Shown here: positions 32,439 to 56,489 of the stretch, in pieces
Numbering within the stretch: position 1 is the first letter of the stretch
Layout: the number at the start of each line of letters is the position of its first letter
From: Lachnospiraceae bacterium
GTDB taxonomy: Bacteria > Bacillota > Clostridia > Lachnospirales > Lachnospiraceae
Direction of reading: 5' to 3'
Assembly (NCBI GenBank): GCA_017427685.1
Contig: JAFRSH010000027.1
Span: 2,477 to 66,476, forward strand
DNA length: 64,000 nucleotides
Notes under the pieces: generated by a model
The model's database searches: none
What the model was told of the DNA's origin: nothing
The model's input: the letters and a program-made list of their open reading frames with translations, nothing else
Translations under genes and position numbers: made by a program

Positions 32439-32510
32439 AGGGTGCCTGGTATTGTTAAAAAGATGTTAGGAACGAAGTTCTTAACAGGTTTTTAACAGTA
32501 CCTGGCTCCC
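32439..32510. repeat. Long imperfect palindrome, family C (copy C1)
   Basis: AGGGTGCCTGGTATTGTTAAAAAGATGTTAGG...CTTAACAGGTTTTTAACAGTACCTGGCTCCC. Homologous to the copies at 43301 and 44439. Confidence 0.8.
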
Positions 32511-43300: not shown

Positions 43301-43398
43301 GGGAACCAGGTACTGTTACAGTTACGAGGGTACCAGGTATTGTTACAAAGATGTTAGGGTCGAAGACCTTAACAGGTTTGTAACAGTACCTGGTTCCC
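43301..43398. repeat. Family C palindromic repeat (copy C3, with an extra duplicated left arm)
   Basis: GGGAACCAGGTACTGTTACA-gttacga-GGGTACCAGGTATTGTTACAAAGATGTTAGGGTCGAAGACCTTAACAGGTTTGTAACAGTACCTGGTTCCC. Confidence 0.85.
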
Positions 43399-43422: not shown

Positions 43423-43995
43423 TTGGAGATTTATACATATCCGGATGTGAATCTTAAGGACACGGCCGTTACGATCGGCAAATTCGACGGAGTTCATCAC
43501 GGACATCGATACCTTATAGATATCCTTAAAGAGAAGGCCGCTGAGAAGAAGCTCAAGACCGTTGTGTTCGTGGTCGACATGGAGGACGACACGAGCGGCA
43601 GGCTTGACATCGAGGTCCTCAAGAAGTCGATGAAGAAAGCTTCACTGCTCACCACATGGGACGAGAAGGTGAAGAAGCTTGAACAGATGGGTGTCGACGT
43701 GGTTGTGCGTTGCCCCTTCACCCGCAAGATCTCGATGCTCAGACCCATGATGTTCGCGAAGGACGTGCTTGCGAAAAAGCTCGGATGCAAGCTTATGGTC
43801 TGCGGTGACGATTTCCACTACGGCAGACTCGCTTCCGGCGATATCGCGAAGCTTGAGACCTACGGTGAGCGCTACGGTTACGAGACCTATACTGTTGAGC
43901 GTCTCAAGGAAGGCGGAGAGGTTGTCAGCTCCACAAGGATCAGAGACCTGATCGAGAACGGCAAGACAGACGAAGCCAAGAAATTGATGTCTTGA
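43423..43995 (+). CDS. ribF: FAD synthetase (FMN adenylyltransferase) domain protein; RibF lacking the riboflavin-kinase domain
   Basis: [16 protein letters not shown] and [12 protein letters not shown]. 190 aa, stopping where bifunctional RibF proteins continue into the kinase domain. TTG start after AAGGAGGGG. Confidence 0.75.
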
Positions 43996-44020
43996 CACCC
44001 GGCCCCGCGCGTTGTATTAT
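43992..44020 (+). promoter_or_regulatory. Candidate rpsO promoter
   Basis: TTGACA, 17-nt spacer, TATTAT. Overlaps the ribF stop codon and leaves a leader of about 90 nt. Confidence 0.5.
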
Positions 44021-44113
44021 ATCAGAGCACACGGACCATGCTCAGGTGAGCGGCTTCTCCCGCCGCCATTCCGGGTTTTGGTTTTCAGCTACAATAAAAA
44101 GGAGGAATTTAAC

Positions 44114-44380
44114 ATGACAAGCAAGGAAAGAAAAGCAGAGATCGTTGCTAAGTACGGCAAGAACGCTCAGGACACAGGTTCTACAGAGGTTCAGGTAGCT
44201 CTTCTTACAGAGAGGATCAACGACCTTACAGCACACCTTAAGAACAACCAGAACGATCATCACTCAAGACGTGGTCTTTTAAAGATGGTTGGTCAGAGAC
44301 GTGGACTTCTCGAGTACCTTAAGAAGTCAGACATCACAGCTTATCGTGAGCTTATCGAGAAGCTTGGTCTTCGTAAGTAA
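44114..44380 (+). CDS. rpsO: 30S ribosomal protein S15
   Basis: [51 protein letters not shown] 44114 follows AGGAGG. Confidence 0.95.
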
Positions 44381-44401
44381 TAAGTTAACATCAAACACTT
44401 G

Positions 44402-44430
44402 GGCTCCGCGAGTTTCGCGGGGCCTTTTTT
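44402..44430 (+). terminator. Intrinsic terminator of rpsO
   Basis: GGCTCCGCG-agttt-CGCGGGGCC followed by TTTTTT. Confidence 0.8.
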
Positions 44431-44438
44431 CACTTTAT

Positions 44439-44509
44439 GGGAACCAGGTACTGTTACAAACCTGTTAAGGTCTTTGACCCTAACATCTTTGTAACAATAC
44501 CTGGTACCC
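44439..44509. repeat. Family C palindromic repeat (copy C4, inverted relative to C3)
   Basis: Equals the reverse complement of 43328-43398 with one mismatch by eye. Confidence 0.85.
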
Positions 44510-44600
44510 TGTTGGTGACTTCATCATGCACTTGTAAAAACCCTGAAAGTTTAATAAAATGAAAAGAAGGGGTTAAAGAACTTATGTAAGAGGTGGTTTT

Positions 44601-44966
44601 ATGCGAGAATCAGGCGAAATGTATCTTGAAACGATACTTGTGCTTTCAAAAGAGAAGGCGACAGTCAGGTCTATCGACGTGGCTGATCATATGAATTTCT
44701 CTAAACCCTCGGTGAGCAGGGCTGTCAACCGACTCAAGGACGACGGCTACCTTAACATGTCACCCGAAGGATTCCTTACACTTACAGACAAGGGACTTGA
44801 CGTTGCGAAGACTATCTACGAGCGTCATGTCGTTCTTACCAAGATCCTGGTAAAGCTCGGAGTCGATGAGCAGATCGCTGCGGAAGACGCATGCAAGATC
44901 GAGCACGACATCAGCCCCGAGACATTTGCGGCGTTGAAGAAGACAGCAGCCGGTTATATCGATTGA
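44601..44966 (+). CDS. DtxR/MntR-family metal-dependent transcriptional regulator (short form)
   Basis: MYLETILVL...VRSIDVADHMNFSKPSVSRAVNRLKDDGYL. Winged HTH plus dimerisation helix. Confidence 0.8.
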   Translation: MRESGEMYLETILVLSKEKATVRSIDVADHMNFSKPSVSRAVNRLKDDGYLNMSPEGFLTLTDKGLDVAKTIYERHVVLTKILVKLGVDEQIAAEDACKIEHDISPETFAALKKTAAGYID

Positions 44967-44985
44967 TCCCGAAAGGAAGCTTGCT

Positions 44986-45864
44986 TTGAAGTCCACAGGT
45001 TTGAACGTATTCTGTTCGTGCTCTTCGGATGCGCAACCATCTAAGAGCAGCAGAGAACTTATCACAGCAGCCGGTCACATGCCGGTTGAGGGCGATGCCC
45101 GCACCCTGCTCGGTGCGGACGCTCTTTTTATCTGTGTCTGCGGCAAGGAGAACAGGCGTGTCAAGGAAGACCTCAATCTCGCGCTCGACAAGGGTCTCCC
45201 GGTCGCGTACATCCTCGAAGAGGGCGGTACGCTTGACTCCGGTCTGAGTATCCAGCTCGCGATCGCGGCGAAGGTGGACGGGGCGAACCCGGCGAACGAC
45301 CTGACCGCATGGCTTAAGGGCGTGAGCGAGAGCGTATCGGCCGGACAAAAGAAGAGCAGGATCAAGCTGGCAGTGATCCTAACCGCAGTGTTACTGCTTG
45401 TTGCAGGCGGAGTGATAGCGGCTCTGACGCTTATGAACCAAGATACGGGTACCGCAGCAGAGTCGGCACTTTCGGAAGTCGAAAGACTCGGGATAGATGT
45501 GGAAGCACTCAAAAAGAGCGAGAAGATAGATCTCGCGGGACTCGGACTCACGGATATCTCGTTCCTCGCGGATTGCACCGCGTGCAAGGAGCTTGATATC
45601 AGCGACAATTCCATAAGCGACATCGGCGTGCTCATGGGACTTAAGGAGCTGAGCGTCCTGAAGGCGGATAACAACAGGATCGTTGACATAAGCGTTCTGA
45701 GCAGCACCACGGGGCTCTTGGTACTGAGCGTTCGGGGCAACAGGGTCAAGGACATCAACGTCCTGCTCGCGCTCACGCAGCTGAGGGAAGCGGACATCCG
45801 CGACAACCCGATAGAGGATTACACGGCAATGAATTTCCTGACCGGAGTGAACATACAGAGTTAA
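44986..45864 (+). CDS. Single-pass membrane protein: TIR-like cytoplasmic N-domain, TM helix, extracytoplasmic internalin-type LRRs
   Basis: TTG start after GAAAGGAAG. N-domain strands NVFCSCSS / ALFICVCGK / PVAYILEE parallel the clear TIR in the next gene. QKKSR, then TM IKLAVILTAVLLLVAGGVIAALTLM. About four 22-aa repeats follow (LTDISFLADCTACKELDISDNSISDIGVLMGLKELSVLKADNNRIVDISVL...). The LRR call is solid; the TIR-like call is tentative. Confidence 0.6.
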   Translation: MKSTGLNVFCSCSSDAQPSKSSRELITAAGHMPVEGDARTLLGADALFICVCGKENRRVKEDLNLALDKGLPVAYILEEGGTLDSGLSIQLAIAAKVDGANPANDLTAWLKGVSESVSAGQKKSRIKLAVILTAVLLLVAGGVIAALTLMNQDTGTAAESALSEVERLGIDVEALKKSEKIDLAGLGLTDISFLADCTACKELDISDNSISDIGVLMGLKELSVLKADNNRIVDISVLSSTTGLLVLSVRGNRVKDINVLLALTQLREADIRDNPIEDYTAMNFLTGVNIQS

Positions 45865-45878
45865 AGAAAGGAAGGATT

Positions 45879-48104
45879 ATGAGCGAGAAGCCTACCGCGT
45901 ACAAAGGAGACGAAAAGTACATTTTTGTAAGCTACGCCCACAAGGACAGCGCTGACGTGATGCCTCTCATCGAGGCTCTGCAGAGCGCTTCATACCGCGT
46001 GTGGTATGACGAGGGGATCGAACCCGGCAACGACTGGGCAGGCGTGATCGGTAACAACCTTGAGAAGGCTGCAATCGTGCTTTTCTGCGCGTCCAAGACA
46101 TCGGTCAAGCGTGACAACGTGCTGCGCGAGATCGCATTTGCCGGAGAACATGATGTGCCCGTCCTCACGGTGACGATCGGAAACGTTGCGTTCCCGGCCG
46201 AGCTCGAGAGGATGCTCATGGTCAATCAGACCGTTTCGCTCAGGACTTTTAAGACATACGGCGATTTCGTGAATGCGATCTCAGGCGTGCTGAAGAAGGC
46301 CGGGACCTACGCAGGAGCAGCAGAGGGCAGCTCCGTAACGGAAGTTAAGGAAGCTTCCGCTGTGGCTACGGGCGGGGCACTCGATAAGAAGATCATGCTT
46401 GGAAGCAGGATGAAGCGTAACAAGCTGATCCTCAGACTGCTCATCGTACTCGCTGTTCTGGCGGCACTTGCGGCAGCGACCTTCTTCGTGGCTTTCAAGG
46501 ATGTACCCGACGTTATCGACATGGATGCGGACGAGGCGCGCGCACTGATCGAAGAAGCCGGTTTTGATTGTGATATCAGTAACGATTACTCTGATACATA
46601 TCCGTTCGGAAAGGTATTCGCGCAGAGCAGGAGCGGTATGAACTTCCGCTTTGTGCCCGTCCTTATCAGGCAGAGCCTCGGACCCGAGGAGAACCTGACG
46701 GATGTTCCGGACACTGTAACGCACCATATAAGCGAAGCGGCGTCGATGCTGATCACCGCCGGCATGAAGAAGTTTGAGATCTCACCCGTGCTCGGTACGG
46801 GCAGAGAGAACGCGCATGTCGATGCGCAGAGCATCCCTGCGGGACTCAGGGTTTCGAGAAACAACGTGATAGACCTTGATGTGGCAACGGACGGCGGCGA
46901 AATCATCTTTGAGATCGCGGGCAAGTACTACGTGATCCGCGGTACGCAGCCTGTAGTTGTCGATGCGGACGATACGAGCAATCTTGAGGAAGTGAAGCCC
47001 GCGGAGGATCCGAACCCGGCTCCCGACAGGAGCACGACCCCTGATGATACCACAGGCTCAATTTCGGGCGGTGATGTCGCAGCGGTCACAGAGGATGAAG
47101 GCGCGGCAGAAGAAGATACGGCCGATACAGAAGATACAGCAGACGCAGGCGATGAAACACCCGAGGGACGGGACGTTGCAGGCGTGACAGATGCTGAAGC
47201 GGAAGAACCTGAAGTCGAAGAAGTACCCGAGCCTACACCTGTTCCGGCACCTACGGCTACGCCTGTTCCCGAACCCACACCGGTACCTACACCGACGCCG
47301 GCACCCACAGCGACACCCGTTCCCACGGCGACGCCTGTTCCCACGGCAACACCTTCGCCCACACCCACACCGAAGCCTACAGCGACACCCACTCCGACTC
47401 CGGAAACGGCGAAGTACAACAGCCTCGGCGGGAACAAGTGGGAGGTTTATAATCAGGCGGCCATGCAGGAGATCCATGATATGCCCATGACTGCAGAGGA
47501 AGCCCGGTCGTACGGTGACGAATGGTTCGAAGGAGAGCACGCCAACGACACATACAGCACTAACATGAAGATCATGGATGACTTTACGATCAACACGGAT
47601 CTGGGAGGGCTTTGGACTGTCGAAGTTCCTTCGGGAAGGACGCTCACCATTGGTAAGGGCGGAAGGCTTCAGGCATGTGTGACGGTACAGAAGGGCGCCA
47701 AGATCGTGGTTGAATCGGGTGGCAAGCTCTGGTGTACGCAGGGCGGCGAGGAGTGCATCATGAACTACGGCACCGTCGATGTCAAATCGGGCGGCCAGAT
47801 CCAGAGTATGTTCGGAGGAACCTTCAACAACCTTTCGGGCGCGACACTCAACCTGAACGGAACCTTTAACTGCGGATCCGTTATGCATAACGTGACTCCC
47901 GACGGCTCGATGGCCCGTGCTGTATGGTTCGTGAACAAGGGAACCGTTAAGGGCAGTGGAAAAGCAACTATCTTCGGAGCTTTCCTCGGAAATTATACCG
48001 ATGAGGAGATAGATGAATTCTTTAACTGGGCTGAGGAACAGCTCGCTGAAAGGCTCGGAAACAGCAGTATCACGACGAGTCAGAACAGGGATTATGATCC
48101 GTAA
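45879..48104 (+). CDS. TIR-domain membrane protein with PASTA-like repeats, Pro/Thr linker and a C-terminal beta-rich module
   Basis: TIR_2-type N-terminus KYIFVSYAHKDSADVMPLIEALQSASYRVWYDE...IVLFCASKTSVKRDNVLREIAFA. KRNK, then TM LILRLLIVLAVLAALAAATFFVAF. Two PASTA-like units (VPDVIDMDADEARALIEEAGF..., VPDTVTHHISEAASMLITAGM...). A (T/P)-rich linker. The C-terminal ~200 aa resemble the end of ORF 52184..56305. Confidence 0.8.
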   Translation: MSEKPTAYKGDEKYIFVSYAHKDSADVMPLIEALQSASYRVWYDEGIEPGNDWAGVIGNNLEKAAIVLFCASKTSVKRDNVLREIAFAGEHDVPVLTVTIGNVAFPAELERMLMVNQTVSLRTFKTYGDFVNAISGVLKKAGTYAGAAEGSSVTEVKEASAVATGGALDKKIMLGSRMKRNKLILRLLIVLAVLAALAAATFFVAFKDVPDVIDMDADEARALIEEAGFDCDISNDYSDTYPFGKVFAQSRSGMNFRFVPVLIRQSLGPEENLTDVPDTVTHHISEAASMLITAGMKKFEISPVLGTGRENAHVDAQSIPAGLRVSRNNVIDLDVATDGGEIIFEIAGKYYVIRGTQPVVVDADDTSNLEEVKPAEDPNPAPDRSTTPDDTTGSISGGDVAAVTEDEGAAEEDTADTEDTADAGDETPEGRDVAGVTDAEAEEPEVEEVPEPTPVPAPTATPVPEPTPVPTPTPAPTATPVPTATPVPTATPSPTPTPKPTATPTPTPETAKYNSLGGNKWEVYNQAAMQEIHDMPMTAEEARSYGDEWFEGEHANDTYSTNMKIMDDFTINTDLGGLWTVEVPSGRTLTIGKGGRLQACVTVQKGAKIVVESGGKLWCTQGGEECIMNYGTVDVKSGGQIQSMFGGTFNNLSGATLNLNGTFNCGSVMHNVTPDGSMARAVWFVNKGTVKGSGKATIFGAFLGNYTDEEIDEFFNWAEEQLAERLGNSSITTSQNRDYDP

Positions 48105-48136
48105 TATAATACGATGTTTATAAAGAAAGGGTACAA

Positions 48137-49030
48137 ATGATGAGAAGAAGAACAATCGTTTTTTCGATTTTGGTTGGTATAATGGCTGCATGCCTGCTTA
48201 TGGGATGCAAATCAGGGACAAAGCTTGAAAACATAGCCTTTGATAAAGAAAAGAACAGTTACACATGTGAGTATGATGGCTTAAAACGAGAGTTTATCGT
48301 AAGTCTGCCCGAGACGGCGAAGAATGCTCCGCTTGTTGTCATGCTTCACGGGTCCGGGGATGCCGCAGACAACTTCAGACAAACCTCTGAGTTCGACAAA
48401 GATGCGAATGAAAAGGGCTATGCTGTCTGCTTTATCAACGGAACGGTCAATGTTAAGGCCGGAAGAAACTCATGCAGTTGGAACTACGGAAGGATCGAAC
48501 CCGATAATGATGACGTATCGTTTATAAAAGAAGTGGTAAAGTACGTCTGCGATGAGTACTCGCTCGACGATGATGATGTTTACTGCGCGGGATTCTCGAA
48601 CGGAGGCTACATGAACTTCAGACTTGCACTCGAGGCCCAGGACGTCTTCAAGGGCTGTGTCAGTGTCGGAGGAGATCTCTGCAAGACCCTTTGGAACAAA
48701 AAGCCCGAAAAGAATGATGTGAGTCTCATGGCTGTATACGGCGAAAAGGACGAGATAGTTCCGAAGAACCTTGACGGATCGGCAAAGAGCGCACTCGATC
48801 CGGCGATAGAAGATGTGCTTGAGTATCTCGCATCGTCAAACGGACTCGCCAAGCAATCGGAGGGCGAGATCGGAAGCGGTTCGACCATATATAAATACGG
48901 TGCGGACGGAGACAGCGATGCCATTTGGGGTGTGCTTGTAAAGGACGGCAAGCACGGATGGCCGACGCAGGAGTCTAATGGTTTCAGTGTGAATCAGTTG
49001 ATACTTGAGTTCTTTTCAAGCATCAAGTGA
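48137..49030 (+). CDS. Lipoprotein esterase, PHB-depolymerase/feruloyl-esterase (COG3509-like) family
   Basis: Lipobox LLMGC, VVMLHGSGD, nucleophile elbow GFSNGG. Confidence 0.75.
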   Translation: MMRRRTIVFSILVGIMAACLLMGCKSGTKLENIAFDKEKNSYTCEYDGLKREFIVSLPETAKNAPLVVMLHGSGDAADNFRQTSEFDKDANEKGYAVCFINGTVNVKAGRNSCSWNYGRIEPDNDDVSFIKEVVKYVCDEYSLDDDDVYCAGFSNGGYMNFRLALEAQDVFKGCVSVGGDLCKTLWNKKPEKNDVSLMAVYGEKDEIVPKNLDGSAKSALDPAIEDVLEYLASSNGLAKQSEGEIGSGSTIYKYGADGDSDAIWGVLVKDGKHGWPTQESNGFSVNQLILEFFSSIK

Positions 49031-49085
49031 TCCCAAAACGCTGTCGTCTAATTGTTTTTTGGAAAACACACGGGCGCGGAAAAGC
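49031..49085 (+). repeat. Family B repeat, partial (copy B3; the left outer arm overlaps or is replaced by the esterase 3' end)
   Basis: TCCCAAAACGCTGTCGTCTAATTGTTTTTTGGAAAACACACGGGCGCGGAAAAGC matches the inner stem and right arm of B1 and B4. Confidence 0.65.
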
Positions 49086-49124
49086 TTGTGAACGTTTAGG
49101 AAGAGTAGAGAAAAGCAGAGGATT

Positions 49125-50765
49125 ATGGTTAAGGATGCGATAAAAACACAATATATTCCTCTTGTTCTGGGAGTTACGGGACACAGGGACATCACTCCTG
49201 ATGACGCCAGACTCGCCCGGGATGTCGTTAGATACGAGATCAAGAGGCTCGCAGCACTTGCTCCCGACACTCCCTTGGAGTTGCTCTCGAGCCTTGCGGC
49301 GGGAGCGGACAGGATCGTAGCTGAGGTGGCTCTTGAAGAAGGGATCCCTCTCACTGTCATCCTCCCAATGAAGTCGGAGCTTTATGAGGAAGACTTTACC
49401 CCCGAAGAGGTTACAGAGTACAGGGAGCTTCTCTCGGGCGCATCAAACGTCTTCGTTGCGCCCGAGATCGAGGATCACAAAGAAGGTCGCGACTTCCTCT
49501 ACCGTCAGGCCGGGATTTACGTAGCGACACATTCACATGTGCTCATAGCGCTCTGGGACGGTTCGGAGCCGAAACGCGGGGGATGCGGAACCGCTGAGAC
49601 GGTGGACATCAAGCTTAAGGGAAGCCTCGAACTCAGCAAGGCACCGGGCTTTTCGCCCGAGAAGGGGTTCGTGATACATATCCCCGTAAGAAGAGGTGGA
49701 GTGGAACCTTTCCCCGAAAGGACCATCACACCGAACTATCTCGGCGATGAGAAGACTTTTAACAGAGTTATCGAACGAACTGAAGAGTTTAACAGGAGCG
49801 CCCTGAAGCTCGCCGCGAAGGGAGAAATCGCATCGCAGGCTTCACTCGCCGGGTCGGAGCATGAGACCGGGAACGAACGCGCTTTCGAGCGTATGTCGAG
49901 GGTCGGATGCGCAGCGGATCTCAGCAGTGTGAAGGGAGCCAAGAGACACAGGATCACAGTCGGACTGATCGCCGTGATGGCGACGCTCCTTACGATGTCG
50001 TTCCTTCTTTATGACGAAGCAAACATTCATTACCTGATCGTCGGCTGTGGCGTGATGATCGTGGGTATATACGTTCTGAACCTGCTTGCCCGGAAGCGTG
50101 ACTTCCATCGCAAGTATCTTGAGTACAGACTGCTTGCGGAGGCGCTTCGTGTTCAGAGTGCACTGATCGAGGCAGGTGTTTATGCCGAGACCTTCGAGAT
50201 GCTCTCGTGGGCACAGAAGCTCGAGACACCGTGGATCAGCCGTGCACTGGCGGCTATCTGCATCTACGATCCCGATTCGCTCACGCTGACCGGTGCGACC
50301 GACAACTGGATCAACGGACAGCTCTCGTATCAGAGGAGAGCCGTGGAACGCGCCAAGGCTCAGTCGAAAGCGAACGACAGGATAGTGCACGTCGCTGTCG
50401 CGATCACTGTAGCGGTGTACATGGCGGCACTCGTGTTCGAGATCTTCTGGGCAGGAACTTTCGGAGGAAGCGCGAAGCTGGGTGAAGTCGATGCCGAGTT
50501 CGTGAGGACCATCTTCAAACTCGCCACCGGATCGCTTTCAGCGATCTCGCTCTTCGCAGGAAGCTACTACGGCAAGCTCTCGCTTGATCAGTGGGCACAC
50601 GATTCCGAGAGAATGGTGCTGCTTTATGAGGAAGCGAACGCAGCCAAGGAGAACTGCCGTGACCTCGGAAAGCTCTGTGTGAGCCTCGCGAGGGAGGAGC
50701 TGTCGGAGAATATGCGGTGGTACGCGTACCAGAGCGTAAACAGTCCCGACGCGCCTATCAGTTGA
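49125..50765 (+). CDS. SLOG-like (LOG/DprA-type Rossmann) domain fused to two SLATT-like 2TM modules
   Basis: LVLGVTGHRD, LAAGADRIVAEVALEEGIP and RGGCGTAETV. Two TM hairpins, each followed by an amphipathic helix (HRKYLEYRLLAEALRVQ; LDQWAHDSERMVLLYEEA). Confidence 0.6.
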   Translation: MVKDAIKTQYIPLVLGVTGHRDITPDDARLARDVVRYEIKRLAALAPDTPLELLSSLAAGADRIVAEVALEEGIPLTVILPMKSELYEEDFTPEEVTEYRELLSGASNVFVAPEIEDHKEGRDFLYRQAGIYVATHSHVLIALWDGSEPKRGGCGTAETVDIKLKGSLELSKAPGFSPEKGFVIHIPVRRGGVEPFPERTITPNYLGDEKTFNRVIERTEEFNRSALKLAAKGEIASQASLAGSEHETGNERAFERMSRVGCAADLSSVKGAKRHRITVGLIAVMATLLTMSFLLYDEANIHYLIVGCGVMIVGIYVLNLLARKRDFHRKYLEYRLLAEALRVQSALIEAGVYAETFEMLSWAQKLETPWISRALAAICIYDPDSLTLTGATDNWINGQLSYQRRAVERAKAQSKANDRIVHVAVAITVAVYMAALVFEIFWAGTFGGSAKLGEVDAEFVRTIFKLATGSLSAISLFAGSYYGKLSLDQWAHDSERMVLLYEEANAAKENCRDLGKLCVSLAREELSENMRWYAYQSVNSPDAPIS

Positions 50766-50850
50766 AGGGCGCTAAAGAATTGGTTGGATTTTTATAAAAA
50801 TATAGTTATATTTATTGCTTTTCGAACCCCAAATAGAATCAATTGACACA

Positions 50851-50892
50851 CGCGCCTCAATACAACAGTACGTTGAGGCGCGATCCTTTTTT
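50851..50892 (+). terminator. Intrinsic terminator after the SLOG-SLATT-like gene
   Basis: CGCGCCTCAA-12 nt-TTGAGGCGCG followed by ATCCTTTTTT. Confidence 0.75.
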
Positions 50893-50985
50893 CTACTTTA
50901 TTTTTACTTGTAGAAAGCAAATTCAACTGATAGAATCAAGGCAGATACGCAGCCCGGGGAGAGACTCGGGGAAAGGGGAAAAGGA

Positions 50986-51876
50986 ATGAAGAAAATAATT
51001 TATTTAACGCTTATGCTGATCGGGCTTATGGCTGCCTGCATTCTTACGGGATGTTCGTCGTCGGGGCCCAAGCTTGAGAATGTTGAGCTTGATAAGGGTA
51101 ACAAGTACAATTGCACGTTTGAGGATGTTAAGCATGATTTCGTAATCAGCCTTCCCGAGCAGACCAAGAACGCACCTCTCATCGTGATGCTTCACGGAGC
51201 TTCGGATTCTGCTGAGAACTTCAGACTCACGAGCCGTTTTGATGAAGATGCGCTTCCTAAGGGTTACGCAGTTTGCTACGCAACCGGAACCGTTAATGTG
51301 AAGGCCGGAAGAAGTGAGAAGAGCTGGAACTACGGAAGAATGGATCCTGATTACAATGATGTAGGATTTATCAAGGCGCTCGTTAACTACCTTGTTGATG
51401 AGTACTCACTCGACGAAGACCGCGTGTTCTGCGCAGGCTTCTCGAATGGAGGATTCATGAACTTCAGACTCGCGCTTGAGGCACAGGATACATTCCAGGC
51501 ATGCGTGAGCGTCGGTGGAGATCTTTGCAAGACACTTTGGAACAAGAAACCTGAAAAGAACGATGTCGGAATGCTTGCTATCATCGGAGAGATCGATGAG
51601 TCCGTTCCGAAGAACTTCGACGGAACAGCAAAGACTGCTCTTGATCCCGCTATTGAGGATGTACTTGATTACATGGCTTCATCAAACGGCCTTGAGCTTC
51701 AGTCCGAAGCTGAGATCGGAGAAGGTTCGACGATCCGCAAGTATGGTGCTGACGGCGATGAGGACATGGTTTGGGGCGTAGTAGTAAAGGGAGCTAAGCA
51801 TGGATGGCCGACGGAGGAGCTTAACAAGATCAGTGCGAATAAACTCATCCTTGATTTCTTCGAGAATTGGAAATAG
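50986..51876 (+). CDS. Lipoprotein esterase, paralog of 48137..49030
   Basis: Lipobox ILTGC, IVMLHGASD, GFSNGG. Collinear with the first esterase; most positions are identical by eye. Confidence 0.75.
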   Translation: MKKIIYLTLMLIGLMAACILTGCSSSGPKLENVELDKGNKYNCTFEDVKHDFVISLPEQTKNAPLIVMLHGASDSAENFRLTSRFDEDALPKGYAVCYATGTVNVKAGRSEKSWNYGRMDPDYNDVGFIKALVNYLVDEYSLDEDRVFCAGFSNGGFMNFRLALEAQDTFQACVSVGGDLCKTLWNKKPEKNDVGMLAIIGEIDESVPKNFDGTAKTALDPAIEDVLDYMASSNGLELQSEAEIGEGSTIRKYGADGDEDMVWGVVVKGAKHGWPTEELNKISANKLILDFFENWK

Positions 51877-52018
51877 AGTTTCTGAATAATTGAATAGTCA
51901 ACGATCAATTCATCTGCTCGTTCAATCCTCACTCCGGTGATCAATATGTCTATGCATATGCATATGCAAAAAGCGTTTCTTGTTTGGATCACATACAAAG
52001 TGCTCTTTACGTTTAGCA

Positions 52019-52047
52019 TTGCATTTCTTTCGAAATATGGGTAAAAT
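52019..52047 (+). promoter_or_regulatory. Candidate promoter of the 1373-aa secreted-protein gene
   Basis: TTGCAT, 17-nt spacer, TAAAAT. Leaves a leader of about 130 nt containing three short hairpins. Confidence 0.45.
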
Positions 52048-52183
52048 ACATACCATGTATGCGTATAAGAGCCTACTACTTCGTTGAAGTGTATGGCCTA
52101 ACGGCCCTGATCATTCCCTTCGGGAATTGAAGGGGCGAGGAAACGCAGTCGGTAGAAAACCGACGGCAAAGAGGAGGTTTTAA

Positions 52184-55100
52184 ATGAAAAGGATTGCTAC
52201 CAGGTTAGTCGTGTTGTTTGCGATCGTTGCTCTGGTGTTCGGAACACTTCCCGCCGGCAGTGCGGAAGCAGCTTCGAAGAAGAGCAAGAAGAAGACGATC
52301 GTCGTTACGACACAGGAAGAACTTGTTGCTGCTCTCAAGAAGTACGGTTCTTCAAATTCAAAGGTTAAGATCAAGATCGAGACTACCGAGGCAAGTACCT
52401 TCACACTCAGTGCGAAGTACAGCTCGGACAGTATTCAGATCGTTGTTGACGCGCCCAATGCCACCATCAAGAGTAAGGCTAAGGTGTCGAGTATTACTAT
52501 TAATGAGGCGAAGTCTGTTAAGGAGTACGCTTCGGGCAACAAGATCACCGTTAATGATGAGAAGCTGACATTCACAGCTATGGAGAATGCGTCGGTTGAG
52601 AAGCTGACGATCGCTTCCGAGACGGGTACCGTCAAGGTCGTTAACAACGGTGGTATCGAGAAGGTTTCCGTTAAGACCGAAGTTAAGGTTGACCTGACAC
52701 AGAACGGTGAAATGGGACGTGTTTACGTCGCTGCGGCTGCTGATATCAGCGTCAGCGGAACTTCTGAAGAGAGTCTTAAAGTTACGGTTCAGAAGGAAGC
52801 TGTCGGAGCGTCGGTTAAGGCTGAAGTTCCGGTTAGCGTTAACGCTTATGCAGACGTTGATCTGACCCTCGAAAAAGGTGCCGAGAACTCCAAGGTCACA
52901 ATGAAGGAAGAGACGGCAGGCGTTAAGCTTGAGAACAATACGGAAGAAACCGTTTCCGTAAAGGATACCGAAGGAAATACCCAGAAGGTTGAGACAGGTG
53001 AGGACCTCACAACAGACAACTTCGTCGGCAAGCCTGATGAGCCCGAAACAACCGAAGGCACAGTAACAGAGCAGCCTAAGGAAGAGGAGCAGAAGGAAGA
53101 AGAAAAGAAAGACGACACAACCAATACCGGCTCGGACAATAACGAAACGGACAATAATCAGGGGAATACAGATCCCGGTAACAACCAGGGCAACACAGAT
53201 CCCGGCTATACAAGCGTGCCCGGTCCTACCGCTACGGAATTGTTTATAAAAGAACTCACGACTGCAGCTGAGACGGCTGCACAGAACGGCTACAGTCAGC
53301 TTGTGCCTGTAAAGAGAACAACCGATCTTACACTTACCGAGGATATCGTCATTCCTACAGGTGTACAGTTGTTTATCGGATACGAAAACAGTAGTGCAAC
53401 ACTTGACGCAGATTCATATGGAATCAAGCTTTCGGAGAATTCACAGATAATCGTATCGTCCCAGAGTAAGCTTAATGTTGAGGAACAGAAAATAGTCTAC
53501 TCTCCCGAAGATAAGGTTCGCCACACAGAGGCTTGGCTTGTTGTTGAACCGGGTGCAGAGTTTAACTTCGGTGCTTACAGGTTTATCGCTGACGGAGATC
53601 AGGGCGTTACCGATCCTCATTATCATATTTGCGCTATCCGCTATGCGTGCGGTGAGGATTGGCATTGGAGTCAAGACGCAGATCGTAATGTCAGGTTCTT
53701 TAATAATTCCGTTTCTGTTCAGAACAATGGCGGTACCGTAACGATCACCGGTGAAGGCGCAGGCTTAAGCGAGCTTCCCGCTGCTTTCGGTGTTGGCAGC
53801 TATATCCTGAATATTCCAAATACCGATTGGGCTGATTTCGAAAATGCCCGTAACGCAGTACCTGAGGACGGAGTGTTCTCTTATCTTGAGTTCACAAACG
53901 GGGACAACCTCAGTTGCAACAAGTTCGTGACCAAGTTTGGAAATGAAGCGATTTATGAATACGTGAACTCTGACGTTGACTGGCTTAATGCATACCTTGA
54001 TCCGAACAGAGCAAACGAGATATCCGATGCAGAGAAAGCAGGAAAGTACTCGACTATATCTGTTGAGAAATCTGATGTGGGCAGGATCAGGACTGTCACT
54101 ATACCTTCGGGCAACTCAAACGGCGCAGCGATAACGATTACCGGCGAGCTTCGTATTCCTGTGGGTTCAAAGCTTATTGCAAATAAGCCGCTTGACATGA
54201 AAGAGTACGGCGCAGTCCTCAAGATCATGGGAACCTTTGAATCGCAAGCAAATTATTATCATGGTCTTGGCGTTTGCAGCTCGGTGATTGGTAATACAAG
54301 CAAAGAAAGGGCAGGAGTTCCTCATCTTCTCGTAGAGATGTGCGGCCCTCAGGCAAGACTGATTTTAAAAGAAAGCAGTGAGTACAGAGAGTATTTCTTT
54401 AAATACTCATTTGAAGATGGCAGACAGGTTGATCTTACAAAGATCGATCCCGAACAGCAGGGCCTGGCGATCGAAACATGGAGAGACGAGGTAGACGGGA
54501 ACACCTATATAAAATCAATATGGGAATACATCTATATCCCCGAGGATACCACCAAAGGAACACCTCACTGGATGGTTTACAGGAAAACAAAGGGTGCTGC
54601 CGATACAACCGGTGTAGAGGTTGTAAATCATCCTTTCAAAGACAATTTCATATCGCTTGAAGATCTTCGGAAGGGAATAAATATAGGAGTTATAGATAAC
54701 AGGCATGAGCTTGTGAGATTTCTTGACTGGTCAAGCAGTGTTGCATGGTTGTATGTCAACGAGAATTGGAACAACTTGACCGGAATCAGAGAAGTAGCAG
54801 ATGATAATAACAATAAGTATGTCGACTTTAGCGGAATAGCTGCGAATGCTTTTGATGGTATTGAAAACTATGCTAACATCGGGTGGCATAAGTTTTCAAC
54901 AAATACACAACAGTATCTTACATTGCCTGCAAGAAAGTCGTCGGACGGAAACAATATTCCTTGGGAATTGAGCGCCGTTGAGCTTAAGCTAAGCGATTAC
55001 ACTGCAAGCGAACTTTGTTCGATGAGACTCAGGCAGGAAGCTTCTCTTAAAGTGAGCATGGGCGGAACACTTGTGGTTGACTCTGTAATGGCTGCCTCAA

Positions 55101-56305
55101 AGGATAACAATTATTTATATACGAAGGCACTTGTGCTCGATTATGATGAGAATGCAACGCAACAGCAAAACAAGGGTGCCCGTATCGATGTATGTCTCGG
55201 TGGTGCGCTTCAGATTGGTGACATCAAGGTTTCTGTTCCCGACAACTGCACCGGCGATTGGAAAGCAGGCCAACCCGGAATCTCACTCTCTGCTGAATAT
55301 GATAATAACAGGACTACAGATTCCCAGAATGGTGTTTATAAGTATTATTTAAGACTTCAGGTACCCCAGTGCGCTAAGTTCACCAAGGTCGATAATGGAA
55401 CTGAAACCATTCCCACAGCTGCAGAGATCAATGCATGGTTACTCGCGAACAATATCTCGATCGATTTTATCGATCCCAGCAAGCTTAATGGTGAGGAATA
55501 CTTTGTAGTAACAGGCGATCCTGACAGAGCATGGATCCTGAAACGCGCAGCGGGTGGATTGGCAAATAACAGTATTGAGGAATTAATAGCTCCTAAAAAG
55601 GACAGTGATGGATACTATGAAATAAAGGAAAGTGAACATCTCCGCGCTCTTTACATGTGCAAGGGAGACGGATCGGGGTCGGAAAGGATCAAGGTGCGGA
55701 TCAATCCGGATAATGCGGACAATGAGCTTATCCTTAACTCAAAGCTGGAGACCATGTGGGATGTTGAAATCGTTTCCGGCAAGAAGCTCACCGTAAACCC
55801 TGGATCTGTACTCGAGGCAGCGGTTACTGTCGCTTCATGCGCAGCTATTGATATTCAGGTCAGCGGAAGCGAATATGGTGAACTTCGCACCACCCAGGGC
55901 GGAAACATCACCGTAAAAGCCGGCGGAACAATCAATGTATATGACGGTACTCATGGTAATGGAAACAGCGGTGAAGGAAAAGCCAAGCTTGTTTCTCAAA
56001 AGGGTGGAAGAGTAATTGTTGAAGCCGGTGGTACACTTGAAATCTATGGTACCTTTGAGTGTGGCGGATATAAAAGTGCCGATGTAGTAACGCCTGAGGT
56101 TTGGTTTGCAAACAACGGAACAGTTAATAACTACGGAAGCATTATCGTAACGATCTTTATTGCGAAATCGTCAACTAGTCAAAGCCTGACCGTAAACGAA
56201 GTGAATGGTATAGCGTTTGATATAAGAAATAAAGGCACTTACAAAGGTGATGGCGTAATCGATATCAAGTACGTAAGTGAAATAGCGTTGACAAATCATT
56301 CGTAA
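52184..56305 (+). CDS. Very large secreted protein of unknown function (beta-rich repeats; C-terminal module shared with the TIR protein)
   Basis: Strong RBS. Signal peptide LVVLFAIVALVFGTLPAGSAEA. Lys/Glu/Asn-rich linker with a duplicated NNQGNTDPG. C-terminal W.VE..SG..LT / GTFxCG / VWFxNxGTV pattern matches 45879..48104. Confidence 0.7.
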   Translation: MKRIATRLVVLFAIVALVFGTLPAGSAEAASKKSKKKTIVVTTQEELVAALKKYGSSNSKVKIKIETTEASTFTLSAKYSSDSIQIVVDAPNATIKSKAKVSSITINEAKSVKEYASGNKITVNDEKLTFTAMENASVEKLTIASETGTVKVVNNGGIEKVSVKTEVKVDLTQNGEMGRVYVAAAADISVSGTSEESLKVTVQKEAVGASVKAEVPVSVNAYADVDLTLEKGAENSKVTMKEETAGVKLENNTEETVSVKDTEGNTQKVETGEDLTTDNFVGKPDEPETTEGTVTEQPKEEEQKEEEKKDDTTNTGSDNNETDNNQGNTDPGNNQGNTDPGYTSVPGPTATELFIKELTTAAETAAQNGYSQLVPVKRTTDLTLTEDIVIPTGVQLFIGYENSSATLDADSYGIKLSENSQIIVSSQSKLNVEEQKIVYSPEDKVRHTEAWLVVEPGAEFNFGAYRFIADGDQGVTDPHYHICAIRYACGEDWHWSQDADRNVRFFNNSVSVQNNGGTVTITGEGAGLSELPAAFGVGSYILNIPNTDWADFENARNAVPEDGVFSYLEFTNGDNLSCNKFVTKFGNEAIYEYVNSDVDWLNAYLDPNRANEISDAEKAGKYSTISVEKSDVGRIRTVTIPSGNSNGAAITITGELRIPVGSKLIANKPLDMKEYGAVLKIMGTFESQANYYHGLGVCSSVIGNTSKERAGVPHLLVEMCGPQARLILKESSEYREYFFKYSFEDGRQVDLTKIDPEQQGLAIETWRDEVDGNTYIKSIWEYIYIPEDTTKGTPHWMVYRKTKGAADTTGVEVVNHPFKDNFISLEDLRKGINIGVIDNRHELVRFLDWSSSVAWLYVNENWNNLTGIREVADDNNNKYVDFSGIAANAFDGIENYANIGWHKFSTNTQQYLTLPARKSSDGNNIPWELSAVELKLSDYTASELCSMRLRQEASLKVSMGGTLVVDSVMAASKDNNYLYTKALVLDYDENATQQQNKGARIDVCLGGALQIGDIKVSVPDNCTGDWKAGQPGISLSAEYDNNRTTDSQNGVYKYYLRLQVPQCAKFTKVDNGTETIPTAAEINAWLLANNISIDFIDPSKLNGEEYFVVTGDPDRAWILKRAAGGLANNSIEELIAPKKDSDGYYEIKESEHLRALYMCKGDGSGSERIKVRINPDNADNELILNSKLETMWDVEIVSGKKLTVNPGSVLEAAVTVASCAAIDIQVSGSEYGELRTTQGGNITVKAGGTINVYDGTHGNGNSGEGKAKLVSQKGGRVIVEAGGTLEIYGTFECGGYKSADVVTPEVWFANNGTVNNYGSIIVTIFIAKSSTSQSLTVNEVNGIAFDIRNKGTYKGDGVIDIKYVSEIALTNHS

Positions 56306-56345
56306 AGTAGCTGCGACGTGGCAGTCACAGCGATTGCAGTAAACC

Positions 56346-56383
56346 AACAGGAACCCTCCGCGGAGGGTTCCTGTTGTTATTTA
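56346..56383 (+). terminator. Intrinsic terminator
   Basis: AACAGGAACCCTCCG|CGGAGGGTTCCTGTT perfect palindrome followed by GTTATTTAATTT. Confidence 0.8.
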
Positions 56384-56489
56384 ATTTGACATCTCTGACA
56401 ACTTTTTCTTTATTTAACGAACAAGACATGCTATAATAGCAAACGGTAGGGACGATGTTGCGTTTTGAAAAGTGGGAGATGATCAAATC

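Follow-up and report, generated by a model that had tools for sequence, protein, structure and literature searches.

Analysis of the window, a 64,000-nucleotide stretch of DNA from a rumen Lachnospiraceae, revealed a run of six plus-strand genes (44601-51876) in which membrane-anchored TIR or TIR-like proteins are encoded together with a SLOG-SLATT-type protein. Because this partnership of TIR and SLOG-SLATT genes recurs in dozens of species, we consider it on balance probable that the locus is a real, undescribed variant of Thoeris-type signalling, a Thoeris-like TIR-to-SLOG second-messenger module whose sensors are located in the membrane. The preliminary description had listed a same-strand series of DtxR-like, TIR-like/LRR, TIR/PASTA, esterase, SLOG-SLATT and esterase genes that starts directly after the rpsO terminator and a family C repeat; the run is real, its coordinates were correct, and both elements were found upstream of the DtxR gene. 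The features of the locus are as follows.

44401-44432, plus strand: rpsO intrinsic terminator (confirmed at 44401-44425; 11-bp GC-rich stem, then a T-run), the upstream boundary of the unit
44439-44510, no strand assigned: palindromic intergenic repeat ("family C repeat"), a perfect hairpin (-40.7 kcal/mol, z = -7)
44601-44966, plus strand: DtxR/MntR-family regulator, 121 aa, first gene of the unit (PF01325, PF02742)
44986-45864, plus strand: p2, truncated TIR-like domain, TM segment and internalin-type LRR (Pfam, AF2/Foldseek, hhalign, TM topology)
45879-48104, plus strand: p3, TIR_2 domain, TM segment, PASTA region, Pro/Thr-rich linker and C-terminal domain (Pfam, invariant motifs, TM topology)
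48137-49030, plus strand: est1, lipoprotein esterase of the PHB-depolymerase family (Pfam, NCBIfam)
49125-50765, plus strand: p5, SLOG domain, DUF4231/SLATT-type 2TM unit and second 2TM unit (AF2, Foldseek, profile matches, TM segments)
50851-50892, plus strand: intrinsic terminator directly 3' of p5 (GC-rich stem 50851-50882, then UCCUUUUUU)
50986-51876, plus strand: est2, esterase paralogous to est1, a separate unit (Pfam, NCBIfam)

No terminator was found between the DtxR gene and p5, and neither the p3-est1 gap nor the est1-p5 gap holds a hairpin comparable to the one after p5. Because a terminator follows p5 and none precedes it, the genes for DtxR, p2, p3, est1 and p5 likely form one transcription unit with its 3' end at 50851-50892. 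Not all members of this unit belong to the conserved module. The regulator (Fe_dep_repress 1.8e-14 and Fe_dep_repr_C 4.4e-13 in Pfam, with MntR models scoring below cutoff) accompanies the module only in L001-L003, L161 and L165, est2 was found in the window clade only, and the DtxR gene, the esterases and a large surface protein are specific to the window lineage. The two esterases are PHB-depolymerase-type alpha/beta hydrolases, 66% identical to one another. In four close relatives (L001-L003 and L165) the TIR/PASTA gene adjoins the SLOG-SLATT gene directly, with no esterase between them, and est1 is therefore a movable, lineage-specific passenger outside the conserved module, which resolves an earlier worry that the intervening esterases mark unrelated neighbours.

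Besides the domain identities, topology and operon layout of the module, the analysis established by comparison across genomes that the linkage of TIR and SLOG-SLATT genes is conserved across species and gene orders. Same-strand TIR genes lay within 6 kb upstream in 24 of the 43 informative loci, which come from a collection limited to one genome per species and combine a p5 homologue of full length with an upstream flank of 6 kb or more; the remaining 19 had no TIR gene nearby. The co-occurrence check proposed in the preliminary description, under which the link would fall if TIR and SLOG-SLATT genes never paired elsewhere, thus left the link standing. The usual cassette elsewhere comprises three TIR(-like)-TM-LRR paralogues (T1-T3), an HD-RyR protein (C1) and the SLOG-SLATT protein (SS); across 80 SLOG-SLATT loci an HD-RyR gene was present in 44 and a TIR gene in 34. 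The window contains neither an HD-RyR protein nor the three TIR-TM-LRR paralogues and carries a reduced, two-receptor version of the cassette. The proposal of a functional TIR/SLOG-SLATT module was partly supported, by a linkage that holds over species, over gene orders and into Proteobacteria.

This linkage persists through at least six gene orders. These include T1-T2-T3-C1-SS and C1-T1-T2-T3-SS, as well as DtxR-p2-p3-SS in L001-L003 and L165, C1-SS-p3-p2 in L167, SS followed by a TIR gene in L005, and T3-T1-T2-SLOG-C1-p3-p2 in L162, where a stand-alone SLOG protein without SLATT lies amid five TIR genes and beside HD-RyR. The p2-p3 pair adjoins a SLOG protein and/or HD-RyR in every locus with sufficient contig (L161 ends too early). 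In other phyla, the same SLOG clade was found on a Caballeronia plasmid as SLOG-DUF4231 with TIR_2 and WD40 proteins, on a Rhizobium plasmid in a set of ThsB_TIR, caspase, SLOG and TIR_2, and in L134 as a TrkA-RyR-SLOG fusion adjoining a 751-aa TIR-domain protein; the plasmid operons are IS-flanked, and the clade has there been swapped onto a caspase. Since the clade is fused or linked to SLATT, caspase and TrkA-RyR near TIR genes, it is a candidate general receptor domain for a TIR product. In a metagenome sample centred instead on generic TIR relatives, SLOG-SLATT lay nearby in 2 of 80 cases, many of the contigs being short. Two TIR-PASTA genes lie by themselves among housekeeping genes, with neither SLOG nor HD-RyR close by, which, together with the SLOG-SLATT loci lacking TIR genes, indicates that neither partner is obligatory to the other.

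The predicted topology places the TIR and SLOG domains in the cytoplasm and the LRR and PASTA regions on the outside of the cell. In p3, a TIR_2 domain (3e-15 in Pfam, aa ~13-125) is followed by an N-in TM segment (aa 187-205), a PASTA region (aa 206-370, with PF03793 at 7.9e-14 over aa 208-250), a Pro/Thr-rich linker and a beta-rich C-terminal domain (aa ~567-700) homologous to the C-terminal end of a 1373-aa surface protein (35% identity, E 4e-17). The p3/T2 family has the invariant residues F16, S18, Y19, H21, W42, Y43, D44, E45, G46, N80 and E84; in alignment, E84 falls on the Glu conserved in Cat1 and TLR15/2, and the profile also matched AbTIR. The TIR domain of p3 appears to keep the canonical catalytic Glu, for which E84 is the candidate, and looks catalytically competent. 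The TM-plus-PASTA part of p3 matches that of the PASTA Ser/Thr kinases (PknB/PrkC/Stk1), with 7.6e-11 to the PASTA-kinase model NF033483 over aa 179-338, and that of PD-T4-6, a PASTA-bearing defence candidate, with 3.2e-6 to its PADLOC models across that part, but in p3 a TIR domain replaces the kinase.

The C-terminal half of p2 is an LRR region (LRR_4, 2.8e-11 in Pfam; aa ~165-292), extracellular by predicted topology, whose AF2 model has internalin LRRs among its Foldseek matches (E 1e-8). A single N-in TM segment (aa 128-146) separates it from an N-terminal domain of about 100 aa, which had no Pfam match and for which the Foldseek output was swamped by LRR matches. This domain has five beta/alpha repeats in the AF2 model and aligns with the TIR profile at 81.8% hhalign probability (E 1e-5), only over the C-terminal half to two-thirds of the profile. 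The label TIR-like is therefore plausible by fold and by hhalign, but this truncated domain has no conserved catalytic Glu, the corresponding position varying between D, N and E. The TIR-like domain (aa 1-100) is probably non-catalytic. A DSGLS motif is common to p2 and the T1 paralogues.

The effector candidate p5 begins with a SLOG domain (aa ~10-210) on the cytoplasmic side, modelled by AF2 with a pLDDT of 84.3 (>90 over aa 10-160). The top Foldseek matches were YpsA (2nx2, 7e-5), DprA, ShosA, ThsA-SLOG and LOG, and the SLOG domain of ThsA with 3'cADPR (7uxs) was among the structural matches; in the AF2 model, the N-terminal domain of p5 has the SLOG fold of the YpsA/DprA-like branch. SLOG proteins have a Rossmann-like fold with a GxGT-type motif and a Gly-rich loop near the N-terminus; the GVTGHR and GCGT motifs are invariant or almost so in the family. 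The position of the LOG-type catalytic Glu (E158) is not conserved, which favours ligand binding over hydrolysis. The 2TM unit that follows (aa ~250-350) matches DUF4231, which we take to be a member of the SLATT clan, at E 2.8e-4 and 21.7 bits, below the Pfam cutoff of 24.7; DUF4231 matches 21 of 23 p5 family members (best 9e-8) and YAcAr matches 8 of 23. The preliminary description had read p5 as carrying two SLATT units. The second pair of TM helices exists (aa ~392-546) but is not recognisably SLATT: it had no Pfam match and no profile similarity to the first unit, the hhalign probability between sub-alignments of aa 245-385 and 386-546 being 0.3. That the effector lacks SIR2, as had also been proposed, agrees with the absence of SIR2 matches in Pfam, NCBIfam and PADLOC; no PADLOC model matched p5, p2 or C1, and no NCBIfam model matched the SLOG protein p5.

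We propose the following pathway, in which the sensing of ligands, the NADase chemistry, binding by SLOG, the action of the pore and the biological role are all inferred from these features. Single-pass p3 would hold its TIR domain in the cytoplasm and its PASTA and beta-rich C-terminal domains outside, with p2 holding a degenerate TIR-like domain inside and its internalin-type LRR outside. A surface change, with peptidoglycan damage or exposure perceived through PASTA and a foreign or surface ligand perceived through LRR as candidate triggers, would cluster the receptors and bring their TIR domains together, the TIR-like domain of p2 serving as scaffold or regulator. TIR NADases require self-association for activity. 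The activated p3 TIR domain would convert NAD+ into an ADP-ribose-derived signal that binds the cytoplasmic SLOG domain of p5, whereupon the 4-TM DUF4231/SLATT-type module could open or oligomerise, leading to membrane depolarisation and to growth arrest or abortive infection. Elsewhere, in the majority of genomes, the SLOG-SLATT protein would act together with HD-RyR and three TIR-TM-LRR paralogues.

Comparison with known systems places the locus near several Thoeris types. It has the general elements of a Thoeris system, namely a TIR domain with a conserved catalytic Glu (p3) and, in the same unit, an effector with predicted signal-binding and toxic modules (p5). With type I Thoeris (ThsB TIR and ThsA SIR2-SLOG), in which SLOG binds 3'cADPR, it shares the logic of a TIR making an ADPR-derived signal for a SLOG receptor, but it has no SIR2, its SLOG is YpsA/DprA-like rather than STALD, and a membrane module takes the place of the NADase effector. 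Type III Thoeris, as summarised in papers that cite its description, combines multiple TIR proteins with a DprA/Smf-like SLOG effector (van den Berg et al. 2024, cited through 10.64898/2025.12.03.692087 and PMC13276650). Our locus likewise unites several TIR proteins (p2 and p3 in the window, three to five TIR(-like) genes elsewhere) with a SLOG of the DprA/YpsA branch, not STALD, in one operon. Against the NCBIfam model ThcB4 of type III, p3 scored 24.5 bits and T2 homologues 19-20 bits, below the cutoff of 220 bits, and by those same summaries the locus is set apart by single-pass membrane TIRs with LRR or PASTA ectodomains, by the fusion of SLOG to a 4-TM DUF4231/SLATT-type module and by the usual presence of HD-RyR. 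Type VII Thoeris pairs a TIR with the SLATT effector ThsH through a canonical cADPR signal (bioRxiv 10.64898/2025.12.03.692087) and resembles the arrangement proposed here, in which a TIR signal generator is coupled to a putative SLATT-class effector that would breach the membrane. In ThsH, however, the signal pockets are described as lying between SLATT protomers (10.64898/2025.12.03.692087), whereas the candidate receptor here is a separate N-terminal SLOG domain; type VII is, moreover, a two-gene operon validated in E. coli or B. subtilis, and we found no mention of membrane-anchored TIRs in its report (10.64898/2025.12.03.692087).

A related frame for SLOG-SLATT is provided by the SLOG/SLATT nucleotide-signalling predictions and by the 2TM/SLATT effectors of CBASS. 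TIR-SLATT gene neighbourhoods have been noted in Firmicute phages, according to papers that cite those predictions (Burroughs et al. 2015, through PMC7159879 and PMC9503650). In the SLOG/SLATT literature, with Burroughs et al. 2015 represented by citing papers, we found no description of a cassette of TIR-TM-LRR/PASTA, HD-RyR and SLOG-DUF4231. The suggestion that this is not a described system holds, within that literature, for the specific cassette, but must be tempered by its closeness to type III and type VII Thoeris.

A more ambitious reading, which we advance tentatively and hold to be less probable than the Thoeris-like module itself, is that these proteins do in bacteria what Toll-like receptors do in animals, so that the two would correspond in function and not only in architecture. 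LRR and PASTA ectodomains would detect an outside event (for example phage adsorption, a tail enzyme attacking peptidoglycan, or a surface molecule of foreign origin), and clustered TIR domains would make an NAD-derived messenger for a SLOG-gated SLATT pore, joined in most genomes by the HD-RyR enzyme. Like animal Toll-like receptors, the p2/p3 family combines an extracellular LRR, a single TM segment and a cytoplasmic TIR domain, includes several paralogues that probably form hetero-oligomers, and has a TIR profile (p3/T2) that matches the TIR domains of TLR15/2, TLR6 and TLR10. In contrast to those receptors, the order is inverted, with TIR N-terminal and LRR C-terminal, the LRRs are internalin-type, and the TIR domain is predicted to be an enzyme rather than an adaptor scaffold. 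The resemblance is architectural; there is no evidence for common descent of the whole receptor.

The strongest alternative to an anti-phage role keeps the same wiring and gives it a physiological purpose, envelope or environment sensing in which, by analogy with PASTA kinases such as PrkC/PknB, muropeptides or surface ligands could set ion flux, dormancy or germination. We regard this as rather unlikely, although several observations point towards it: the match of the p3 PASTA region to the kinase model NF033483, the metal-dependent regulator that leads the unit, an effector without PADLOC matches, and the absence of p5 relatives from the viral contigs of IMG/VR. Genomic context points the same way. 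The window clade occupies a fixed site after rpsO, beside nusA-infB-truB-rpsO, in at least five further loci (L001, L003, L161, L165 and probably L002), a pattern more in keeping with vertical inheritance than with a mobile defence island, and flanks are mainly housekeeping, including SpoVAD and alanine racemase. Among 30 cassette loci with 93 flanking ORFs scanned, Cas9/Cas1 occurred in one locus and MADS matches in one or two (raw counts), giving defence genes in ~2-3 of the 30. On the other side, the ectodomains are the fastest-evolving part of the cassette and HD-RyR the most conserved: between the two most similar cassettes, identity is 73% in the T3 ectodomain compared to 95% in C1, 92% in SS and 98% in the T2 TIR domain, and overall identities range over 39-63% for receptors, 60-68% for SS and 81-95% for C1. 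We count this rapid change as suggestive of sensor-like evolution. Several receptor paralogues occur per cassette, the cassette is flanked by differing genes in differing species, and the swapping of the SLOG clade onto caspase and IS-flanked plasmid TIR operons is a modularity typical of conflict systems. Further, every experimentally characterised bacterial TIR-SLOG or TIR-SLATT pairing in the literature cited here is anti-phage.

It is quite improbable, in our judgement, that each TIR protein is a complete effector in itself, depleting NAD+ once the surface is damaged, and that SLOG-SLATT, with HD-RyR, is a separate sensor-effector for another signal that merely co-travels with them. NAD+-depleting TIR effectors are known from CBASS, Pycsar and pAgo, TIR-PASTA genes can stand alone, and many SLOG-SLATT loci lack a TIR gene, HD-RyR being the commoner partner. 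Such independence is difficult to reconcile with close same-strand adjacency retained in different phyla and despite at least six rearrangements, with the stand-alone SLOG protein amid five TIR genes in L162, and with the precedent of SLOG as receptor for TIR products.

Still less probable is a scheme in which SLOG acts on the signal as enzyme or regulator, making, trimming or degrading it, with HD-RyR as the true effector and the version in the window as a decayed remnant. The SLOG superfamily includes LOG phosphoribohydrolases, the SLATT-less SLOG protein of L162 adjoins HD-RyR, and HD-RyR is both the most conserved part of the cassette and missing from the window. Against this stand the variable LOG-type catalytic Glu position, the SLOG-4TM fusion retained at full length in 440 clusters (50% identity) at E <= 1e-30, and the intact ORFs of the window, whose relatives at 83-95% identity keep a full-length p5. 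That the genes are simply unrelated neighbours, as the lineage-specific esterases, DtxR gene and large surface protein, unlinked to the module elsewhere, might have suggested, already conflicts with the comparative evidence (TIR genes nearby in 24 of 43 informative loci, direct adjacency in L001-L003 and L165, linkage kept in rearranged loci and no terminator between the genes) and retains hardly any credibility.

We know of no Thoeris system that senses outside the cell; the characterised ones detect infection within the cytoplasm. That single-pass TIR receptors with fast-evolving LRR or PASTA ectodomains form a widespread cassette suggests a new input, TIR signalling from the cell surface, and gives a parallel in prokaryotes to the layout of Toll-like receptors, one that bears on the origin of LRR-TM-TIR receptors. 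It also offers a testable function for three uncharacterised groups: the large SLOG-DUF4231 family with its 440 clusters, the HD-RyR family and the many TIR-TM-LRR proteins of rumen and gut Clostridia. If the Toll-like reading were true, prokaryotes would have their first TIR pathway that signals across the membrane from outside to inside, and the system would be the first Thoeris-like one to sense before or at genome entry.

Finally, the palindromic repeat at 44439-44510, which is incidental to the TIR/SLOG finding, has further copies at 43305-43394: its arms recur there and at 32489, with six matches compared to 0.01 expected.

Seven + strand ORFs lie downstream of the rpsO terminator (44401-44425).

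Genes of the window downstream of rpsO
44601-44966, + strand: DtxR/MntR-family regulator, 121 aa (PF01325 and PF02742)
44986-45864, + strand: p2, a TIR-like–TM–LRR protein, 292 aa (LRR_4, 2.8e-11)
45879-48104, + strand: p3, a TIR–TM–PASTA protein, 741 aa (TIR_2, 3e-15; PASTA, 7.9e-14)
48137-49030, + strand: est1, lipoprotein esterase of the PHB-depolymerase family
49125-50765, + strand: p5, a SLOG-SLATT protein between both esterases, 546 aa
50986-51876, + strand: est2, lipoprotein esterase of the PHB-depolymerase family
52184-56305, + strand: large secreted surface protein, 1373 aa

This confirmed the six-gene run of the preliminary description, with the exception of a second SLATT copy in p5. 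No terminator was found in the p3-est1 and est1-p5 gaps of the window and a GC-rich hairpin with a U-run lies directly 3' of p5 (50851-50892), so DtxR-p2-p3-est1-p5 most likely form a single transcript. Judged by the charges on either side of each TM helix, TIR and SLOG lie on the cytoplasmic side of the membrane, and LRR and PASTA on its outer side.

A scan with the p5 alignment, covering one genome per GTDB species, recovered 80 loci, all from rumen or gut Clostridia MAGs. De novo ORF clustering of these loci revealed two conserved neighbour families: TIR proteins, with 71 genes near SLOG-SLATT in 34 of the 80 loci, and C1, a protein of ~575-676 aa found by tblastn in 44 of the 80, whose similarity to HD is weak, whose C terminus is a RyR domain (PF02026, best 1.3e-14) and whose PDB matches include ryanodine-receptor repeat domains. 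Among the 43 informative loci, in which the p5 homologue is of full length and ≥6 kb of flanking sequence is available upstream, same-strand TIR genes were present at ≤6 kb in 24 and TIR genes were absent from 19, against a chance expectation that we roughly estimate at ~1% from the few TIR genes per genome. This co-occurrence, which is kept through rearrangements, strongly supports the genetic link between TIR and SLOG-SLATT genes proposed earlier. Three other clusters were rejected. Cluster c6, upstream of SLOG-SLATT in Mogibacterium loci, reads in translation as a PtsI-type PEP-utilising enzyme, a housekeeping neighbour; c5 is an antisense ORF-calling artefact in GC-rich loci, where tblastn puts C1 on the opposite strand at the same position; and c4 likewise runs antisense to the SLOG-SLATT match, at precisely its location. 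In the reverse direction, metagenomes scanned from the T2/p3 TIR side gave SLOG-SLATT near 2 of 80 and HD-RyR near 3 of 80, in a sample too unspecific for a fair comparison because it consisted mostly of generic TIR_2 proteins of the 'RLWYDEGI' kind from short contigs; the p2/p3-specific family was traced via individual protein look-ups.

The typical cassette consists of five same-strand genes, for which hhalign gave TIR homology at 99.3% probability for T1 and 96.9% for T3.

Genes of the typical cassette
T1, ~290 aa: TIR-like domain without the Glu, TM, short LRR
T2, ~390 aa: canonical TIR, TM, PT linker, LRR
T3, ~930-1290 aa: TIR-like domain, TM, very large internalin-type LRR
C1, ~575-676 aa: HD-RyR
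SS, ~530 aa: SLOG-SLATT

Gene orders of the cassette and its rearranged forms
Many loci: T1-T2-T3-C1-SS
L048, L051, L052: C1-T1-T2-T3-SS
L005: SS, then TIR
L001, L002, L003, L165: DtxR-p2-p3-SS-esterase
L084: p3-p2-C1, then contig end
L167: C1-SS-p3-p2
L162: T3-T1-T2-(stand-alone SLOG, 191 aa)-C1-p3-p2

Wherever the contig is long enough, the p2+p3 pair adjoins a SLOG protein and/or C1; the L161 contig ends at its esterase and is uninformative in this respect. The concern that the intervening esterases could mark unrelated neighbours is answered by these loci: the esterase between p3 and p5 is missing in four close relatives and L161 has one directly after TIR/PASTA, indicating that the esterase is a movable passenger. 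The paralogues est1 and est2 are 66% identical, and the single esterase of L001 is nearer est1 (78%) and that of L002 nearer est2 (83%), which, with the placement in L161, indicates that esterase position has been shuffled within the window clade.

The uncharacterised HD-RyR protein (L017:7939-9969, L008:8296-10023 and 42 other loci) was the commonest and most conserved SLOG-SLATT partner and occurred as two subtypes (~676 aa and ~575 aa) with a mutual identity of ~26-30%. It was also found beside SLATT-only short forms (L073, L074, L078) and is missing from the window cassette. At SLATT-only loci (L080:7215-9667, L076, L078), two more genes recur near C1, encoding a ~180-315-aa protein and a ~565-650-aa BspA-like surface LRR protein (PDB 4gt6, 9.5e-13), which suggests another surface-sensor variant.

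The AF2 model of p5 (23 homologues; mean pLDDT 84, pTM 0.83) matched in its N-terminal part, in order, YpsA (2nx2, E 7e-5), DprA, ShosA, the ThsA SLOG domain with 3'cADPR (7uxs) and LOG proteins. These matches identify the N-terminal domain as SLOG-folded and assign it to the YpsA/DprA branch. Among the 23 members of the p5 family, DUF4231 was matched in 21 (best 9e-8) and YAcAr in eight; p5 of the window itself scored 21.7 bits for DUF4231, slightly under the Pfam cutoff. Another TM helix pair follows downstream of the DUF4231 unit, and the duplicated SLATT reported in the preliminary description is not supported in that form: the second TM unit showed no profile similarity to the first (hhalign probability 0.3), and an internal duplication was rejected. 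The p5 family, which comprises 440 clusters (50% identity) at E ≤ 1e-30 and 3078 at E ≤ 1e-10, strongly conserves GVTGHR, GAD, E116, R127-Q128 and GCGT. At the site of the catalytic Glu of LOG proteins the family is variable, which we interpret as pointing to ligand binding rather than hydrolysis as the probable activity of the SLOG domain.

Analysis of the receptor-type proteins revealed one canonical TIR domain and one divergent, TIR-like domain. p3 is a member of a tight TIR subfamily, T2, in which F16, S18, Y19, H21, W42-Y43-D44-E45-G46, N80 and E84 are invariant and whose profile matches the TIR domains of Cat1, TLR15/2, TLR6, TLR10 and the NADase AbTIR; E84 aligned with the conserved Glu in the two profile alignments inspected (Cat1 and TLR15/2). 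Its TM helix spans aa 187-205 and a Pro/Thr-rich linker follows PASTA. The extracellular p3 C-terminal domain (aa ~567-700, window 47577-47980) is 35% identical (E 4e-17) to aa 1180-1327 (55721-56164) of the 1373-aa surface protein encoded 4 kb downstream, with no Pfam match in either region, and the two proteins may have a common ligand or anchoring partner. p2 has a five-fold beta/alpha domain in its N-terminal ~100 residues, a single TM helix (aa 128-146) and an internalin-type LRR as its C-terminal half, with InlA and InlB among the matches of the AF2 model (~1e-8). The fold search with the p2 model was swamped by internalin LRR matches; the N terminus was therefore examined by profile-profile comparison, and here it aligned (hhalign probability 81.8%, E 1e-5) with the second half of the TIR profile. 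Given its DSGLS motif, common to the T1 paralogues, the missing WYDEG loop region and a D, N or E at the catalytic position, p2 is probably a truncated, non-catalytic TIR-like partner.

Comparison with published systems suggested several partial precedents. Type I Thoeris pairs a TIR protein with SIR2-SLOG, in which SLOG binds 3'cADPR, type III combines multiple TIR proteins with a DprA-like SLOG effector and an unknown signal, and type VII combines TIR with a SLATT effector and a canonical cADPR signal (10.64898/2025.12.03.692087; PMC13276650). TIR-SLATT neighbourhoods and a predicted nucleotide-gated SLATT pore have been described by the Aravind group (PMC9503650; PMC7159879). The window system is not type I because it has no SIR2, and its TIR proteins, with T2 homologues, stay below the 220-bit cutoff of the NCBIfam type III model, scoring 19-25 bits. 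It is a recombination of parts known from Thoeris types and TIR-SLATT neighbourhoods. In our literature search, neither the whole cassette nor the HD-RyR partner was described, nor were TIR proteins whose LRR or PASTA ectodomains are TM-anchored, although Burroughs et al. 2015 (NAR) and van den Berg et al. 2024, with which the window system was compared through secondary descriptions, may mention them. We propose, as the best-supported reading, that the receptor ectodomains would sense at the surface, that TIR clustering would produce an NAD-derived signal and that the SLOG-gated membrane module would respond to that signal. The significance of the system lies in this Toll-like-receptor-style topology and in the wide spread of uncharacterised families.

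Members of the same SLOG clade were also found beside TIR genes outside Clostridia, in other phyla. Caballeronia plasmid pSBC2-4 (L168:6046-12513) encodes a 577-aa SLOG and DUF4231 protein (SLOG domain 36% identical; DUF4231 at 3.8e-7), followed by TIR_2 and then a WD40 protein, and Rhizobium binae conjugative plasmid p4 (L169:4617-6986) carries ThsB_TIR, caspase, SLOG and TIR_2 as one operon between IS elements; each is apparently an additional Thoeris-like arrangement that has not been described. A metagenome contig (L134, 452-2770 and 3744-5999) encodes a TrkA-RyR-SLOG fusion, thus joining RyR and SLOG in one polypeptide outside Clostridia, beside a 751-aa protein with N-terminal TIR motifs and a C-terminal part that by eye looks TPR-like. 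One sensor-like domain with interchangeable outputs is a pattern of nucleotide-signalling conflict systems, and the combination of this SLOG clade with SLATT, caspase or TrkA-RyR outputs strengthens the coupling of TIR to SLOG.

Nevertheless, a physiological envelope-sensing role remains a serious rival, with PASTA kinases, which the p3 TM-PASTA region matches at 7.6e-11, as its precedent. No PADLOC model matches p5, p2 or C1, and p3 matches only generic TIR and PASTA. Searching the viral contigs of IMG/VR with the p5 alignment recovered no relatives, and tblastn of GenBank phages gave one weak SLOG-only match in a Klebsiella phage and nothing else. Cassette flanks are largely housekeeping (SpoVAD, alanine racemase, SmpB, L13), and the defence-island signal is weak, with Cas9/Cas1 at one locus and MADS matches at one or two; two flanking ORFs are large serine recombinases. 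In the window clade the locus occupies a fixed site after nusA-infB-rbfA-nrnA-truB-ribF-rpsO, and two TIR-PASTA proteins are solitary in housekeeping contexts. These observations, together with the TIR-less loci, keep envelope sensing in contention. Across cassettes, C1 was the most conserved (81-95% identity), followed by SS (60-68%) and the receptors (39-63%). Between L017 and L020, which form the closest pair, identity was 73% for the T3 ectodomain compared to 95% for C1, 92% for SS and 98% for the T2 TIR, and between the window and L001 p2 was 46% and p5 95% identical. Flanking genes differed across loci, even for closely related cassettes. This pattern of sequence identity and context fits sensors under diversifying pressure on a mobile cassette.

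Several other elements were observed around the locus. Rfam gave no match above threshold over 43900-57000; the ribosomal S15 leader (RF00114) matched below threshold at 44064-44167 (23.3 bits compared to a gathering threshold of 39.5, E 0.076), upstream of rpsO and extending over its start. A palindromic element of ~70 nt with the arms ACCAGGTACTGTTACAAA / TTTGTAACAATACCTGGT occupies intergenic gaps of the truB-ribF-rpsO region (43305-43394 and 44439-44510; partial copy at 32489-32506) and, with a folding energy of -40.7 kcal/mol (z = -7), resembles REP or MITE repeats. The leader of the gene for the 1373-aa surface protein (52010-52150) has an unusually stable fold (-44.5 kcal/mol, z = -3.3) and has no Rfam match. 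Finally, the gene at 56472-58283, after a strong terminator (56345-56376), encodes a membrane protein of 603 aa that ends in an HD_5 domain (4.4e-30); it is kept in L001 and L002 and belongs to a different HD family from that of HD-RyR.
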